Source: a virus (Duplodnaviria > Caudoviricetes). Taken from it: a stretch of DNA of 47,952 nucleotides. The notes beneath the pieces are model-generated. The model was not told the origin of the DNA and searched no databases. It saw nothing but the letters and a program-made list of their open reading frames with translations. This document shows, piece by piece, positions 910 to 47,952 of this stretch. The stretch lies in IMG/VR virus record IMGVR_UViG_3300012971_000009, positions 1 through 47,952 of that record; one strand, 5' to 3'. The position numbers and the translations under genes were made by a program. Position 1 is the stretch's first letter. Each line of letters begins with the position of its first letter.

Positions 910-1064
910 GGTGACCCTCTCTCTGATTTGATTCGCAAGGTATCAGGAGTGTTGGCCGTGGTGAGCCGTATTCGGCCCATGGAGCTGGCCCTGGCCGCGG
1001 GTGGTCCCCGTACGCCCGTGTCGATGGCAAACGCGGGAGCACGGCCAGGAAACGGAGTTCCTCC

Positions 1065-3097: not shown

Positions 3098-3116
3098 GCG
3101 AGACAGGGACGGGGAG

Positions 3117-3950
3117 GTGCCTGCCGACACAGGCACCTCCCTCTACACTCCGGCCATGGGCATGCGCGAGCTGGTACAAGGGGCCACCATCAGGGTGATG
3201 CCCAAGATGCACGATGCCTCGGGAATCACCGTGGCATGGTGCTCACCAGGCATCACCGACAACCGGTTCACCGAGTCGCTGTCGGCCATGCACGTGTTCG
3301 ACAAGTTCTACGGTGGGAACCGGATCTGGTCCACGATCTCCATCGAGGGCGGTCCCCGCATCGTGGAGACCAGGACCCAGATCATCGAGAACTTCATCAA
3401 CAAGCTGGACCTCAGCCATCCCGTGTCATGCGAGGCTCCCACCTGGCTCGCCACCGTCGATGCCGACATGGGATTCGAAGGAGACGCCATACACCGTCTG
3501 GTCACCATCGCCGAGGAGGGCGACCCCAACACGGGAGACCCCATCCACATCATCGGGGGGCTGTGCTTTGCGGGTGGTCGGACGCATATGACACCAACGA
3601 TCTATCGGGAGTACGTGGACGAGGACGGGAAGGCCCTGTGCGAGCCGCTACGTGAATACCCGAAGAACGCGCTGCTCAAAGTGGCAGCCACAGGCGCCGC
3701 CTTCATGGTCGTGCATCGAGACGTGCTCATAAAGATGTACGAAGCGTTCAAGACGGCGCCGGATGGATATCCGCACCCCCATCCCTGGTACGTGGAAGGC
3801 CAGTACAAGGGGAAGCAGTTCGGCGAGGACATCGCCTTCTGTCGGCGGGCCGCTGCTATCGGGTACCCAACCTGGGTGCACACTGGAGTCAAAACGGACC
3901 ACATGAAGCGGTTCGCACTCAACGAGGACCTCTATGACGACATTCGGTGA
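3117..3950 (+). CDS. GT-A fold (GT2-like) glycosyltransferase
   Basis: DxD motif (VDADM), ATGAAFMVVHRDV, GEDIAFCRRA, WVHTG..H; start codon uncertain. Confidence 0.75.
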   Translation: MPADTGTSLYTPAMGMRELVQGATIRVMPKMHDASGITVAWCSPGITDNRFTESLSAMHVFDKFYGGNRIWSTISIEGGPRIVETRTQIIENFINKLDLSHPVSCEAPTWLATVDADMGFEGDAIHRLVTIAEEGDPNTGDPIHIIGGLCFAGGRTHMTPTIYREYVDEDGKALCEPLREYPKNALLKVAATGAAFMVVHRDVLIKMYEAFKTAPDGYPHPHPWYVEGQYKGKQFGEDIAFCRRAAAIGYPTWVHTGVKTDHMKRFALNEDLYDDIR

Positions 3951-21729: not shown

Positions 21730-21808
21730 CTCTCTCTGTCTCCATTCTAGCTTGTTCCGGGGGGACCGTCGTCGATCCCCCCGGTGCCAAGCTCCGAGAG
21801 AGGACCTC

Positions 21809-23290: not shown

Positions 23291-23316
23291 GAGTTGTCCT
23301 CTCTCTTTTCTCTGAC

Positions 23317-25117: not shown

Positions 25118-25130
25118 CTTGTCTCCTCTC

Positions 25131-25220
25131 TCATCGACTTCCGTCGAAGAATCCGATCATGTACCAGATCAACCCCCATATGGTGAGGACTGTCACGAAC
25201 AGCCACCAGGGGATGTCCAT
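25131..25220 (-). CDS. Single-TM microprotein (29 aa)
   Basis: TGATG coupling; MDIPWWLFVTVLTIWGLIWYMIGFFDGSR. Confidence 0.55.
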   Translation of the reverse strand: MDIPWWLFVTVLTIWGLIWYMIGFFDGSR

Positions 25221-25582: not shown

Positions 25583-25623
25583 CTCTTGTCCTCTCTCTAG
25601 TTGGGGATACTCCCTCTTGCCCT

Positions 25624-25701
25624 CTAATCAAGCACTGTGATGAGGTAGAGCACCACGGCGCAGACCAGGATGACAAGGGGGAGCAGTAGGTAGACGGGCA
25701 T
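25624..25701 (-). CDS. Single-TM microprotein (25 aa)
   Basis: GGAGG SD; MPVYLLLPLVILVCAVVLYLITVLD. Confidence 0.55.
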   Translation of the reverse strand: MPVYLLLPLVILVCAVVLYLITVLD

Positions 25702-25712
25702 TTTCCTCCGCA

Positions 25713-25758
25713 GCCACGAGTGATCTGATTCTGGCCCGCCCGCCACGAGTGATCTGAT
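25713..25758. repeat. Two perfect 17-bp direct repeats GCCACGAGTGATCTGAT
   Basis: Copies at 25713-25729 and 25742-25758, 29-bp period, intergenic. Confidence 0.9.
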
Positions 25759-25767
25759 CCCGATCGA

Positions 25768-26006
25768 CCCCCGGTCCTGTCCGGTTGGAATCGTGGTCCT
25801 GGGCCAGGACCGGGGGGGTTGGTTTCCCCACCCTGGCGACCACAGGGGATTGCGATCAGCACCAGGGTGGGGAGATCAGTAGGCGGTGGCCGGTTAGGGG
25901 TGAGCACGCACCCCCGGCCACCGCCATCCTCGCTCCTAAGTGACGTGCTCGCGGCTACGGAGCGAGTGACCTGAGTACCACCAGGAGGGTTTCCCCTCCT
26001 GGTGGT
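25768..26006. other. Array of five consecutive hairpins (structured non-coding element)
   Basis: Stems 25768-79/25805-16, 25820-36/25862-78, 25882-93/25914-25, 25929-36/25959-66, 25977-89/25994-26006. Confidence 0.75.
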
Positions 26007-26014
26007 GAGCGAGA

Positions 26015-27056: not shown

Positions 27057-27158
27057 CTCTCTCCTTTCGTGGCCATCACGCCACGTTTCATCTGAACCTC
27101 TCCAACCCCTGGCCCCGGCCCCCACCGCGGGGGGAGAGACCCCGCGGCGGGAGCGATC

Positions 27159-27203
27159 AAAAGGGGGGGAGGCGCACCAGCTTGCGCTGGCACGCCTCCC
27201 TCC
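27159..27203 (-). terminator. Intrinsic terminator
   Basis: GGGAGGCG..CCAGC GCAA GCTGG..CGCCTCCC followed by TTTT, directly after the stop at 27209. Confidence 0.65.
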
Positions 27204-28147: not shown

Positions 28148-28176
28148 TTCGCTCTCCTCTCTCTGAGTCACTTGTC

Positions 28177-29243: not shown

Positions 29244-29250
29244 CGTTCAA

Positions 29251-29575
29251 TCTCCAATCTCTCTGGGGCGTGCGATTCACACCCGACGCTCAAGTACCAC
29301 GCCTCGTCAACCCCCGAAGAGCAGGCCCTAGTCACTCGCTCCACCGGCGCTGGAGCGTGGTTTGTGGTGACCGGAGCGAGGCCACCCAATCGGCCCCACC
29401 GACTCACCAAGCAGGCTCGTGGGCCGATGGGTAGCCGAGCGGGTGTTGTCGGTGACGGCAGCCTTGAGCCAGCCAACTACCAACCGTGCAGCGAGGGCGT
29501 GGGCCTGCGTGGGGTTGACGTGTGTGGTACGCCGAGCGCCGAGGTGTGGAGCGCACAAACCCTAGAGAGAGGAGA
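29251..29575. ncRNA. Candidate ~325-nt rod-like structured element (RNA or ssDNA)
   Basis: Nine nested helices between the two arms (see findings); no credible ORF. Confidence 0.55.
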
Positions 29576-29775
29576 TAACTCTCGGCCAGGCCCGCCGCTC
29601 GCCCAGCCGACCGTCCCCCGGGTCGCGTCGCAGGGAGGCGGGCGAGCGCTTGGCGGGCCGGGACCAACGCCAGGGTACGCACCGAGCCGCGTCGCCAGCC
29701 GCCGCCGTGGTGAACCGGCAGCAGCGGCTGGTACATCGCCACGCTAGGGCGGCGGTCCACCCGCAGTGCTTACGT

Positions 29776-29803
29776 CCTACTACTCGGAGGCCCGAGTAGT
29801 AGG
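29776..29803. promoter_or_regulatory. Perfect 12-bp inverted repeat
   Basis: CCTACTACTCGG-aggc-CCGAGTAGTAGG. Confidence 0.6.
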
Positions 29804-30208
29804 TCAGAGTCGCCAGTACTGACGTGTGTTGGCGCGTTTTCTGGATCGCCCGCGTTCCGCGTGCACCGTTTTCAGCACCGATAGCGCCCTATCGACGGCT
29901 CTGAGTGGCGCAGGGAGGTGCAGGCGTGCCCGTTTCCTCGGGATGTGTACCGCGCCCCCGGTGTATCGGAACGTCCTACCCTGCCAATATGCCGGTATGA
30001 AGACCACGGCACCTGAGCACAGCATAACACCAGGCAGACGGGTATCTACCCCCCCACCCGGCTGCCACACTCGGGTACCCGGCCGTTCTTCGCACGGCTC
30101 ACACGGTTCCTGGACATAGCTGCGCTGATTGCTTGCCCACCCGATGGGATCCCGTGGGATCACCCCGTCCGTGCGACACCGGGATCTTCCACCCGGCAGC
30201 GGATCAGT

Positions 30209-30445
30209 TCAGCGTCGGGTGGCCTCGGCCGTCGTACCAGGGCCGCATGGTAGAGCGCAGGTGGCGTGCCTCCAGTGGCGCACGCCGTCGAGACGGATCA
30301 TGGAGATCGGGTCTCCGCGAGAAATCGTTTTGCGGCACGTCACGCACCGAGTGGCGAAACGGGCCAGGGTGGTGGACGTGGGAATGGCGCCGGGGCGAAG
30401 GTCTCGGGCGGCTTGGTTGATCAGCCCCTGCTTGCGCCAGTTCAT
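30209..30445 (-). CDS. Small zinc-finger protein (CxxC...HxxC)
   Basis: ARF.TRCVTC...I.RGDPI...WRHATCA, PARP-finger-like spacing. Confidence 0.65.
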   Translation of the reverse strand: MNWRKQGLINQAARDLRPGAIPTSTTLARFATRCVTCRKTISRGDPISMIRLDGVRHWRHATCALPCGPGTTAEATRR

Positions 30446-30665
30446 ATCGAGCACGTAGACTACCCCTGGTTGTAGGAGACCGCCAGCTTACATCCCCCCA
30501 GATGTGGACGCAAGTTCCCTGGGGGGATGGAGCAGCTGCTGAGACCTGGGGTATAGTCCACGCATGGGTACCCTCGGGGCGGAAAGAACCCCACGTACAG
30601 CGGGACACGCCCCGGGATAGCGCCCCGGGGCGTGTCTGCGCCTCGGGCAGATTAAGGGAGGAACC

Positions 30666-30866
30666 ATGGCCGAGAAAACTGCCCAAGCCACCGAGGAAGC
30701 ACCGCCTCCGGCACCCGAGGCACCTCCGGAGCCGACCCCCGAAGAGGACCAGGCCACGGTGGTCGACTTCGCCCTGCGCCAGGGCAATGCCACCGAGGAG
30801 GTCAAGGCGGCTGCCAACCGCCTCGTGGCCAAGGCTGCCGAGAAGGCTGACGCCAAGAAGGGCTGA
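30666..30866 (+). CDS. Hypothetical protein (66 aa)
   Basis: GGGAGGA SD; first rightward gene. Confidence 0.7.
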   Translation: MAEKTAQATEEAPPPAPEAPPEPTPEEDQATVVDFALRQGNATEEVKAAANRLVAKAAEKADAKKG

Positions 30867-31057
30867 TGGCCACCGGCAAGAAGAACTGGATGGCCAGTGC
30901 CGTCAAGCGCCCCGGCGCCCTGACACAGAAAGCGAAGGCGGCCGGGGCCTATCACAACGGCAAGATCGACGCCTCCTTCCTCCAGCCGAAGAAGGGCGAC
31001 TCCACGCGCACCAAACGCCAGAAGGCCCTGGCCCGGACCTTCAGGAAGAGCCGATGA
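30866..31057 (+). CDS. Small basic protein (KNW...AVKRPGAL...LARTF type)
   Basis: TGATG coupling; Lys/Arg-rich motif of a type seen near phage head genes. Confidence 0.75.
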   Translation: MATGKKNWMASAVKRPGALTQKAKAAGAYHNGKIDASFLQPKKGDSTRTKRQKALARTFRKSR

Positions 31058-31155
31058 CAGGATTCCTGGACAATGTGTCCGTCGGTGATGTCCTGCTCCT
31101 GCTGCTCATCCTGCTGGCCATCATCTGCGCCGTCATCTTCATCGCCCGCCGCTGA
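31054..31155 (+). CDS. Single-TM microprotein (33 aa)
   Basis: ATGA overlap; MTGFLDNVSVGDVLLLLLILLAIICAVIFIARR. Confidence 0.65.
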   Translation: MTGFLDNVSVGDVLLLLLILLAIICAVIFIARR

Positions 31156-31239
31156 GCGGGCTGCACGTTCTCGGGTACGTCGTGATCACGGGGCTAGCGC
31201 TAGCGGTGGCGCTGGCTGTCATAGCGGCCCGGACCCGTG

Positions 31240-31290
31240 GTCAGGGCTAGGCTCGGTTCTCATCCTCTCTCTCCCGAGCCTGGTCCTGGC
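31240..31290 (+). promoter_or_regulatory. 17-bp stem / 17-nt pyrimidine-rich loop hairpin abutting the terminase start
   Basis: GTCAGGGCTAGGCTCGG-TTCTCATCCTCTCTCTC-CCGAGCCTGGTCCTGGC; three G-U pairs on the + strand. Confidence 0.7.
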
Positions 31291-31292
31291 GA

Positions 31293-33056
31293 ATGAGTAA
31301 GTTCAACGACATGCGCCGGGAGGCATCCCTGCGCAAGCGCAAGGCCTTCGTCGAGCTGATGCGCACCGGGTCGTCCATCAAGGAGGCGTGCACCGAGGTC
31401 GGCATCAGCCGCTCCAACTATGAGTTCTGGCGCACCTCGGACAAGCGCTTCGTCGGGGCCGTGGACCGTGCCCGGCTGGAGTGGCTGACCTCCATCGGCA
31501 TGACGCTGCCCGACCGGCCCGTAAGTGCAGGCTTCGACTTCGCGGCGGAGCGCCTGTACTGGTTCGGTCACGAGTCGCCGTGGTTCCAGCTGGAGATCAT
31601 CTCCGCCATCGAGCACCTCCCTCCCGGCCACATCCTGTTGGTCCTGCTCCCTCCCGGCCACGGCAAGACCACCCTCTACGAAGACTTCGTCACGCTCCGC
31701 CTCGGCCACAACCCTTCTCTGCGAAATCATGTCGGCTCCGAGTCACAGAGCCTGTCCAAGAAGATCCTGCACAGAGTGCGGTCGAGGCTGGACCCCATCC
31801 CCGGGTGGACCAAGATGGAGGAGTTCGTCATGGCCTACGGGCCGTTCGCTCCTCCCAAAGACGAGACCCGCCGCCAGGGCCAGGCCTGGACCGGGACCCA
31901 CTTCGACATCTGGCGCAAGCGGGAGTTCGACGAGCGGGACTTCTCCATGGCGGCGTTGGGCTTCGGCTCCCAGATCATCGGCAGTAGATCCGACCACCTC
32001 CACGTGGACGACGTGCAGTCCATGAAGACGCTGGCCCAGACCGAGTCCTACGTGGACCAGTTCACCCAGGACTGGCTCAGTAGGCCGCTCGATCAGGGCA
32101 TCACCGACATCATGGGCAACCGCATCGACGAGGGCGACTTCTACGAGGGCGTGATGGACTCCATCCCCTCCGACATCCTCCACGTGATCCGCTACCCGGC
32201 CCTGTACGACTACGGCACCCCGCAAAGCCCCGATGTGCGACCGCTGTGGGAGGAGCGCTTCAGTGCCGAGGGCATCGAGCAGATGCGGGCCAAGGTGGGC
32301 GATGTGCGCTTCGCCCGGAACTGGCAGCAACGGCCCCGGGCCGTGCGCATGAAGACCTTCGACGAGGACACCGTCACCAAGACTTTCCTACCCTTGCGCT
32401 CCCTGGGCACGGTGCAGGAAGGCAAGGCCCACGTGGTCGGCCTCGACCCCGGCTTCGGCACCTCGGCAATCGCAGCCTGTCAGCTCGACGACAACGGCAT
32501 GACCGTCACGCAGCTGCGCGAGGACCGAGGGTTCTACAACAACGAGCAGGTGCTCAACGCCGTGCGTGACGTAATGGCCGACATCGTGCGCCGGGGCGGC
32601 ATCGTCACCGATCTGGTCATCGAATCCAACGCCTACCAGAAGGGTCTGATGCGCGATCCCCAGACCCTACGCCTCCAGGACCACTACGGCTGTGCCATAA
32701 GACCACATCAGACCAGCGGGGACCGCAACGACGAGAACATCGGCATCCCCTCCATGGTCCACACCATGAACCGGGGCGAGCTGCACATCCCCTACGCCGA
32801 TGACGACCACACCCGGTTCTGGGTCGACGAGCTGAAGGCCCAGCTGCTGGCGTGGAAGCCCAAGGTCCCCGGCTCGCGGTTGAGGATGGACCTGCTCATG
32901 GCGCTGTACTTCTGCTGGGTGCTGTGGCGTAATCGGGGCGGTGTGTTCACCCCTTCGCCCATGGACTGGACCACCGCCAACAAGTCCCCCTACAACTCGG
33001 GGCGGGGCCTGGTCCTTCCCCGTGGTTACAATCCCGTCCTAACGCGCTCACGGTGA
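31293..33056 (+). CDS. terL: Terminase large subunit with N-terminal HTH extension
   Basis: Walker A PPGHGKT, G.R.D..HVDD Walker B, coupling MGNR, YPA..LWEERFS, nuclease VGLDPG, IESNAYQ. Confidence 0.9.
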   Translation: MSKFNDMRREASLRKRKAFVELMRTGSSIKEACTEVGISRSNYEFWRTSDKRFVGAVDRARLEWLTSIGMTLPDRPVSAGFDFAAERLYWFGHESPWFQLEIISAIEHLPPGHILLVLLPPGHGKTTLYEDFVTLRLGHNPSLRNHVGSESQSLSKKILHRVRSRLDPIPGWTKMEEFVMAYGPFAPPKDETRRQGQAWTGTHFDIWRKREFDERDFSMAALGFGSQIIGSRSDHLHVDDVQSMKTLAQTESYVDQFTQDWLSRPLDQGITDIMGNRIDEGDFYEGVMDSIPSDILHVIRYPALYDYGTPQSPDVRPLWEERFSAEGIEQMRAKVGDVRFARNWQQRPRAVRMKTFDEDTVTKTFLPLRSLGTVQEGKAHVVGLDPGFGTSAIAACQLDDNGMTVTQLREDRGFYNNEQVLNAVRDVMADIVRRGGIVTDLVIESNAYQKGLMRDPQTLRLQDHYGCAIRPHQTSGDRNDENIGIPSMVHTMNRGELHIPYADDDHTRFWVDELKAQLLAWKPKVPGSRLRMDLLMALYFCWVLWRNRGGVFTPSPMDWTTANKSPYNSGRGLVLPRGYNPVLTRSR

Positions 33057-46772: not shown

Positions 46773-47952
46773 CCATCGGCTACGACGCCAACGGCATCTA
46801 CGTCATCGGTCAGCAGGAGTACCAGAACATCGTCAACAATTGGCAGGCGACAGGGAACTCCTCCAACCTCCAGGGCTTCCTGTGGGACATGCTGACCCAG
46901 GGTGGTCGGGCCATTGCCGGGGCCAACAACAAGGGCTACTCGTCCTACCCCGAGATCGTGGCCAACCTGATGTCCAAGGGCATCGACGTCACCCACTGGG
47001 GTCTGCCCACGGTGCAGCAGGTGCAGGCCAACGCTCACGCCTACCCCGGCCTCACGCCGGGACCGATGTATCCCCAGGCCATTCCCGGGCCGACACCGCC
47101 CAAGCCCGCCTCCACCCAGGCGGCGGCTCCGGCCGGTCATCCCACCACCGGGACTGTCACGGTCAACCCGGACCAGGTGACCGCCTTTCGATCCGTGAAG
47201 CGGTTCCTGGACGAGATCGGCTTCGGCAACATGGCCACCCTCGACTCCAAGGGCAACCCCGGCGGGTGGTTGTGGGACCAGGTGGTGAAGAAGGGCTACA
47301 CCACCCAGGACGAGATCATGTCGGCTCTCGACGCCAACGCCGCCTGGCACAAGCGGTTCCAGGTCCACTACGACCAGATGGCTCAGGTCGGCAAGGGCAT
47401 CCCGACCCAGGTGATGAGCTTCGCCGAGATCCGCCAGTACGAGAAGTCCGCTGCTGACGTTATGCGGGCCTACGGCATGCCCACCCAGCTCTACGACAAC
47501 TACACCGACTTCCAGAACCTCATGCGCCGGGGCGTGTCCATCGACTCGCTCAACAAGGCGGTGTCGGTGTCGTGGAACCGGGTGGCCAACGCCGGAGCGA
47601 ACGTCAAGCAGGCCTTCACCGACCTGTACGGTCCGGCCGGGAACTCGATGCTGGCCAGTTGGTTCCTGGACAACGCCCAGTACGAACAGAAGCTCGACCT
47701 CATGAGCCGTGCCGCTTCCATCAAGGGCACGGCCGGAGCGTTGGGTCTTGACATCGGCAGATCGGTGTCGGAGTCGCTGGGCCAGGCCGGGTACGAGGGC
47801 ACCACCGCTCGCACCCAACTGGCTGATCTCGCCGCTAAGTCCCAGCTGCTCAGTGAGGACATCTCCGACACCACCGATCTCACCGCCAACCAGGCCGTGA
47901 GCGGCACCTTCGGCCTCAACGCCGAGGACCAGGCCGCCCTCCAGGCCCGGTC
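46769..47952 (+). CDS. Putative internal virion protein (422 aa including the part across the junction to 208)
   Basis: ATGA overlap; MTIGYDANGIYVIG... open to the contig end and continuing at the contig start; missed by the ORF track. Confidence 0.8.
   Translation, partial: MTIGYDANGIYVIGQQEYQNIVNNWQATGNSSNLQGFLWDMLTQGGRAIAGANNKGYSSYPEIVANLMSKGIDVTHWGLPTVQQVQANAHAYPGLTPGPMYPQAIPGPTPPKPASTQAAAPAGHPTTGTVTVNPDQVTAFRSVKRFLDEIGFGNMATLDSKGNPGGWLWDQVVKKGYTTQDEIMSALDANAAWHKRFQVHYDQMAQVGKGIPTQVMSFAEIRQYEKSAADVMRAYGMPTQLYDNYTDFQNLMRRGVSIDSLNKAVSVSWNRVANAGANVKQAFTDLYGPAGNSMLASWFLDNAQYEQKLDLMSRAASIKGTAGALGLDIGRSVSESLGQAGYEGTTARTQLADLAAKSQLLSEDISDTTDLTANQAVSGTFGLNAEDQAALQAR
47830..47952. repeat. Terminal direct repeat, right copy
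   Basis: Identical to 1-123. Confidence 0.97.

Follow-up and report, generated by a model that had tools for sequence, protein, structure and literature searches.

A hairpin loop before the terminase gene of an uncultured phage complements the ribosome-binding sites of five early genes and is a candidate antisense element

A tag repeated at the ribosome-binding sites (RBSs) of a phage's own genes was described in Cluster K mycobacteriophages by Pope et al. in 2011: the 13-nt SAS sits at the RBS of non-structural genes, and a single opposite-orientation copy occurs in four phages (PMC3203893). The function of SAS was left open in 2011, either a protein or an RNA being allowed as its ligand, and in the available text of that paper no function is given to it and no hairpin is described. 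Host small RNAs offer a second precedent. According to the available texts, open C/U-rich loops, as in 6C of Actinomycetota (PMC6486639) and in LhrC, RNAIII and RsaE (PMC4132741), are directed at G/A-rich Shine-Dalgarno (SD) regions, and neither 6C nor LhrC needs Hfq. These are free-standing host RNAs with UCCC or C-run loops. In cis, the f1 VII/IX and MS2 coat/lysis pairs have a long hairpin just before the downstream start that is opened by an upstream stop lying within it; the available text describes no anti-RBS loop for them (PMC12548453). Lastly, RNA structure at the start times expression of the T4 genes e, soc, 49 and I-TevI, whose leader hairpins sequester the SD or AUG of the gene itself and are circumvented by transcription from an internal late promoter; in its available text, the 2010 review of T4 treats such cis hairpins as known and reports no trans-acting small RNA in this phage (PMC3014915).

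We analysed the 47,952-nt record IMGVR_UViG_3300012971_000009, whose whole length is hereafter called the window. This phage record, which has direct terminal repeats, is complete; its GC content is ~64%, and it is present in soil metagenomes. Positions 1-123 are a copy of 47830-47952 (123 nt, an assembly overlap), hence a genome size of ~47.8 kb. Structural genes lie on the + strand, from terL at 31293 around to ~12 kb, and early genes on the - strand. The terminase large subunit encoded by terL (31293..33056, +) shares 24-27% identity with that of Streptomyces Beephvirinae-type phages, which have the same gene order, and relatives at 38-42% identity were found in MAGs of Ilumatobacteraceae and Actinomycetes. 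By these affinities, the host of this soil phage is probably an actinobacterium. Some further features were recorded in passing. The 5' part of terL (31293-31500) encodes an HTH-like segment with weak matches to terminase-small-subunit profiles, possibly a fused terS. Just upstream of ssb, a tRNA-like minihelix (26633-26584, - strand) has a 7-bp acceptor-type stem, a canonical T-arm and ~20 nt replacing the D and anticodon arms; ARAGORN and Rfam returned no match for it. Directly after ssb, positions 25700-26010 contain four long hairpins (12-19 bp) and two 17-nt direct repeats, making this region a candidate replication origin or structured RNA.

A 17-bp hairpin (31240..31290, +) ends 2 nt before the terL ATG. 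As the initial annotation had stated, the stem runs from G31240-C31290 through 17 uninterrupted pairs, three of which are G·U on the + strand only, and the terL start is SD-less (SD energy -3.1 kcal/mol). The fold of 31238-31292 reached -33.1 kcal/mol, with a z-score of -5.1 on the + strand versus -2.5 on the - strand. For the 140-nt region 31156-31295, which includes a second long hairpin (31170..31233, +), the corresponding values were -4.0 and -0.6. The stem was the third-longest among 54 uninterrupted stems of at least 12 bp and was equalled in none of six Markov genomes. Strong hairpins are many in this genome, and in a z-scan the element ranked 15th of 1597 windows. It was recovered without variants in 4/4 runs, read as contigs, which drop rare alleles. 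Neither a sigma-70-type promoter nor a U-tailed terminator was found at the element, and Rfam and tRNA searches of the window were negative, with 0 Rfam hits at gathering. Membership in the 6C family was considered and rejected: no 6C appeared among the 7 weak Rfam hits (E up to 10) in 29250-31400, and where 6C has two C-rich loops, only one of the two hairpins here has a C/U loop.

The 17-nt C/U loop (31257..31273, +) has a predicted opening cost of about 0, and positions 31263-31272 are the exact complement of an early RBS 10-mer. This 10-mer was counted five times versus 0.09 expected: in the loop, at 29564, and at the RBSs of the AAA ATPase gene (start 23290; 23297..23306), of gene 25582 (25589..25598) and of gene 28147 (28155..28164). 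Matches of 9 nt were found at genes 25117 (25124..25132) and 909 (916..924). All five of these - strand sites, which had been proposed as partners of the loop, were confirmed by sequence match; in the pairing predictions, gene 25582 had the best net energy and gene 909 was poorly accessible. At 9 nt, the loop complemented 5/29 early versus 0/18 late RBS regions, a level reached by 0.9% of 20,000 loop shuffles (P≈0.009). It was the sole such site within the 29 kb of late sense strand, and four other G-free sense 17-mers matched no RBS at 9 nt. Gene 909 (646-909) is a lone - strand gene within the late arm, with an early-type RBS; late + transcription would be antisense to it, and the 20-bp hairpin at its end (626-668) has the longest stem in this genome. 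Two 15-bp hairpins, one with a short C/U loop, follow gene 28147 (27118-27200, -).

Two more reverse copies of the motif lie on the - strand. The first, also reported in the initial annotation at 29562-29575, is real at 29564..29575, upstream of the first early gene and half buried in a local stem. The other, at 21796..21805, was absent from that annotation. It lies on the sense strand 3 nt past the AAA-ATPase stop, is half engaged in a local stem that includes this stop, and is a 10-nt complement of the ATPase's own RBS. Intergenic sense-strand reverse copies numbered three versus 0.05 expected (P about 2e-5, computed post hoc); a single such copy would have P 0.05. Pairing of the ATPase tail with its own RBS was discarded as a lineage trait, 9 nt being reached in 0/75 relatives (of 80 ATPase-relative loci, 4 were skipped and 1 was a duplicate). 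Around the 29564 copy, we also noticed a divergent motif pair (29283-29320, -, and 29500-29540, +; TTGACG...GTGGTAC...GAGCG) with a non-sigma-70 spacing, and a + strand terminator-like site at 29811-29840 with strong inverted repeats between, so that a + RNA of ~300 nt carrying the purine tag is possible.

In the folding predictions, the loop was fully open and four targets cost 1-3 kcal/mol to open. Net pairing energies were -11.6 to -15.2 kcal/mol for these four, -7.4 for gene 909 and -7.6 for the best late RBS. Duplex energy separated the loop from its shuffles less well (P 0.04 for the mean, 0.10 for the top five), and the pairing spanned 9-11 nt, without extending into target-specific flanks. 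The tag amounts to a wobble-extended SD, which makes the loop in part a generic anti-SD: counting one G·U, 8-9 of the 10 tag nucleotides can pair with the 16S tail, which was identical at 30/30 actinobacterial loci (one class). A variant host 16S tail exactly matching the tag was sought and found in 0/401 Actinomycetota genomes. Since the tag serves the usual actinobacterial 16S tail as an extended SD, the loop should also target strong SDs of the host and of late genes, if less well. Loop and 16S tail ordered RBSs alike (Spearman 0.67 over 47 hand-picked starts), early SDs being stronger than late ones for both. The predicted accessible loop complementary to target SD regions is what this element shares with the C/U-loop anti-SD small RNAs. 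It differs from the 6C/LhrC type in being phage-borne, in lying in the terL leader, in having one loop aimed at the phage's own tag, and in its lack of an Rfam hit.

The stem is predicted to act on terL separately. The predicted opening cost of the terL start was 24.1 kcal/mol, the third-highest among 30 genes, and fell to 10.1 kcal/mol when 31233-31262 was held open, which mimics a ribosome at the TAG (31248). This TAG, 43 nt ahead of terL and inside the hairpin's 5' arm, terminates a probable small membrane ORF (31152..31250, +) with a CTG or an internal SD-less GTG start, inside which the second long hairpin is found. The hydrophobicity of this ORF (2.61) exceeded that of all 1793 null windows (1475 off-frame, 318 intergenic). 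Its codon score was weak, and homolog searches with the small ORFs of this region gave none, the sole hit being a repeat artefact. The stop of the preceding gene, which encodes a 33-aa membrane protein (31054..31155, +), overlaps the CTG. A probable upstream ORF ending in an inhibitory stem, before a downstream start that is closed and SD-poor, is the arrangement expected of translational coupling. It resembles f1 and MS2, and f1, according to the available text, is still coupled at +62 nt, compared with +43 for terL (PMC12548453). Among terL relatives, an upstream stop was found within -16..+11 of terL in 86/90 loci (table reading) and within -15..+10 in 45/90, and an SD of -7 or better in only 14/90. 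These 90 loci are the distinct ones out of 163 (4 skipped), with heuristic starts and many of them closely related. The frequent upstream stops and rare strong SDs suggest that an SD-less, coupled terL is normal for the lineage. Entry into terL by a -1 frameshift or by reading through the TAG, which shares the terL frame, was set aside, no slippery site being seen, as was a leaderless terL, no sigma-70-type promoter being found.

Other reading frames and one other hairpin deserve mention here. In frame 2 of the + strand, a mildly hydrophobic open stretch with no start codon (31235-31300) runs across the hairpin, and its stop overlaps the terL start by 8 nt; it may be what is left of a second helix once belonging to the upstream membrane ORF. 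Hydrophobicity of this frame across the loop was 1.55, and 1.5 was reached in 22/1475 off-frame windows. A 19-codon GTG ORF (31237-31296) also bridges to the terL ATG. Elsewhere, a 13-bp hairpin (3111-3142, +) located 14 nt past the stop of the capsid gene sequesters both the SD and the GTG of the gene that follows, whose start-opening cost of 40 kcal/mol was the highest of the 30 genes.

The reading that we favour, to which we give just short of an even chance, joins both functions. It builds on the sequence, the complementarity, the strand-biased fold and the recurrence of the layout in other phages (see below). As late (+) RNA accumulates, the open loop would pair with the extended SD tags of the five early genes, and this pairing would damp their translation. 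Separately, the stem would keep ribosomes from initiating on their own at the SD-less terL start; terL would be translated once the stem is melted by a ribosome that terminates at the TAG in the 5' arm. That the element is transcribed, that it pairs in vivo, that its effect has this direction and that the small ORF is translated is what we infer. Shut-off aimed at early SDs has a parallel in T4, where RegB cleaves early SDs; unlike the element proposed here, RegB is a protein. Regarding the earlier proposal of silencing in trans, a match exceeding composition, predicted accessibility on both sides and the independent recurrence of the layout in unrelated phages make it plausible, and the missing homolog deprives it of covariation support. 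The wording "early-to-late switch" was an overstatement, given that loop and tagged genes share a strand in the other phages.

We looked for relatives of the hairpin itself. A single-protein terL scan of viral contigs returned no relatives, and profile scans returned terL relatives at 38-43% identity only; terL proteins with 47-66% identity are known. Viral contigs contained no exact copy of the 20-nt loop pattern, and a scan with the 63-aa gene gave 5 contexts, all unrelated. A C/U run of at least 10 before terL was found in 0/90 terL relatives (24-43% identity, mostly marine), and a long stem at this place in 1/90 (L083), of 14 bp and with an unrelated loop lacking C/U. Among 11 further terminase-proximal loci, 0/8 readable starts had such a hairpin before terL. 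Absence among relatives at 24-43% identity is weak evidence that the element is truly absent there. The check for covariation of loop and tag yielded no hairpin homolog among the 90 terL relatives.

By scanning ATPase-relative loci, we found long hairpins with loops complementing the phage's own repeated RBS. Four whole records of other uncultured phages, picked because such a hairpin had been seen (G722, G703, G697 and G723), each have one on the sense strand, matching 7, 3, 6 and 4 of their own RBSs, respectively; G715, Abafar and Immanuel3 had no such hairpin at 9 nt. In G723 the tag is different and the loop correspondingly different. In the other three, the loops are conserved and the stems are not, and a conserved purine loop ~60 nt upstream of the C/U loop is a possible in-cis partner. 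A conserved three-hairpin RNA (L233:7085-7240, L284:7020-7180, L239:7055-7240) has, on divergent stems, a purine loop and a C/U loop complementary to each other; it is possibly a kissing-loop RNA and had no Rfam match. We then permuted locus labels over 74 loci (6 near-duplicates dropped) with 152 hairpins, in which 25/33 C/U loops versus 8/19 A/G loops were on the ATPase strand. At 9 nt, the score was 15 versus 1.5 expected (0/5000 permutations), 9 versus 1.2 with one clade collapsed and 4 versus 1.1 (P 0.047) once the AG-repeat clade was removed; no comparison reached significance at 7 nt. Owing to the mirror symmetry of the runs, a complement-without-reversal control did as well, and energy placed only 3/19 loops in the top 5%. 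Triplex formation with duplex DNA, which the mirror symmetry brought to mind, was set aside on its pH requirements. Judged from these sequences, the recurring layout of a hairpin loop facing its own tag looks like a real class, with few lineages behind the signal.

Cluster K phages gave a related picture. In Anaya and Angelica, we located the reverse SAS in a hairpin of roughly 20 bp, whose 10-nt loop it constitutes; the hairpin lies on the transcribed strand, ~1 kb short of the right end, and precedes an HNH gene and, after end joining, the terminase genes. The hairpin region is present in 150 records. Among 14 Cluster K phages, the loop was exact in 7, a drifted C/U loop in 2 (Ekdilam and Amgine) and absent in 5. 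In the two drifted cases SAS was unchanged, that is, there was no loop-tag covariation. The reverse SAS loop was invariant in 7/9 Anayavirus records, and over the 16 pairs of the stem one-sided changes were seen at 8 and a two-sided change at 1, a modest covariation. Both systems have a repeated, asymmetric extended RBS tag on non-structural genes only and a reverse copy off gene starts, held in the loop of a long sense-strand hairpin. They differ in that the sequences are unrelated, the 13-nt SAS not occurring in this phage, and in extent, with 9-10 nt on 5 genes here versus 13 nt on 11-19 in the available text on Cluster K (PMC3203893). Moreover, this phage has three reverse copies, and its loop lies on the opposite (late) strand from the tagged genes. 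In our literature search, conducted largely outside subscription papers, we found no published case of a phage's own RBS tag complemented in a hairpin loop.

A simpler explanation is that the stem merely throttles terL in cis, through coupling, a ribosome-termination structure or a U-less attenuator, and that the RBS match arises incidentally, since GC-rich RNA can keep a long loop open only if that loop is free of G and hence C/U-rich. We regard this as unlikely, though the most serious of the alternatives. It would be in keeping with a hairpin-rich genome in which the 13-bp stem after the capsid gene buries an SD and a GTG, with the TAG in the 5' arm, with the 14-bp stem before terL of L083, which has no C/U loop, and with the like ranking of RBSs by loop and 16S tail; the mild hydrophobicity of frame 2 would even allow the loop to be relic Leu/Ile/Ser codons. 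The match, however, exceeds that of shuffles with the same composition, the four other G-free sense 17-mers match no RBS at 9 nt, and the layout recurs with other tags.

We hold it to be improbable that the loop has another partner, whether a purine copy in cis (the + strand of 29564, if co-transcribed), a protein or a nuclease, or that the 10-mer is an orientation-free DNA site. The purine loop ~60 nt upstream of the C/U loop in G722, G703 and G697 suits a partner in cis; a protein or RNA ligand was left possible for SAS in the available text of Pope et al. (PMC3203893), and the presence of the motif on both DNA strands here suits a DNA site. Yet the 140-nt element contains no purine partner, and 29564 is 1.7 kb away, probably across the genome ends if the Beephvirinae gene order is followed. 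Nor would a DNA site have a reason to occupy an RNA loop whose stem contains G·U pairs on one strand only.

Still less probable is a micro-inversion, by which the loop would be a former translation start flipped between inverted repeats. On the - strand, the loop reads as an SD (-6.2 to -7.4 kcal/mol), 7 nt and an ATG inside the loop, and the inner 8 bp of the arms form a perfect inverted repeat; by hand arithmetic on the coordinates, the unflipped loop would supply an SD and an AUG, together with a 9-codon ORF whose stop overlaps the terL start, a coincidence estimated at about 5%. Against this, the 4 runs showed no strand-changing joint or replaced letters (in contigs, which drop rare alleles), the tag would have zero spacing, unlike real RBSs, a start within a -33 kcal/mol hairpin would stay closed, and the other phages would be left unexplained. 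Finally, we give very little credence to the proposal that early mRNAs bind the loop, open the stem and switch on terL translation, which has only geometry in its favour (a stem ending 2 nt before the ATG), whereas holding the loop paired did not lower the opening cost of the terL start (24.3 versus 24.1 kcal/mol, helix strain lying outside the model) and the flanks of the targets show no complementarity reaching into the arms.

Returning to loop-RBS pairing with a separate terL gate, the case for this genome alone is moderate. A broader proposal, which we put forward tentatively and consider possible rather than probable, is that a lytic phage silences in trans a set of early genes, privately tagged with an extended RBS, through the loop of its late packaging mRNA, as a chaperone-free antisense, and that the Cluster K SAS with its lone reverse copy is the same device. 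The idea offers a cheap and concrete test of Cluster K SAS function in cultured M. smegmatis phages. If it is true, a whole early regulon would be under the control of mRNA-mRNA pairing, without repressor, nuclease or chaperone.
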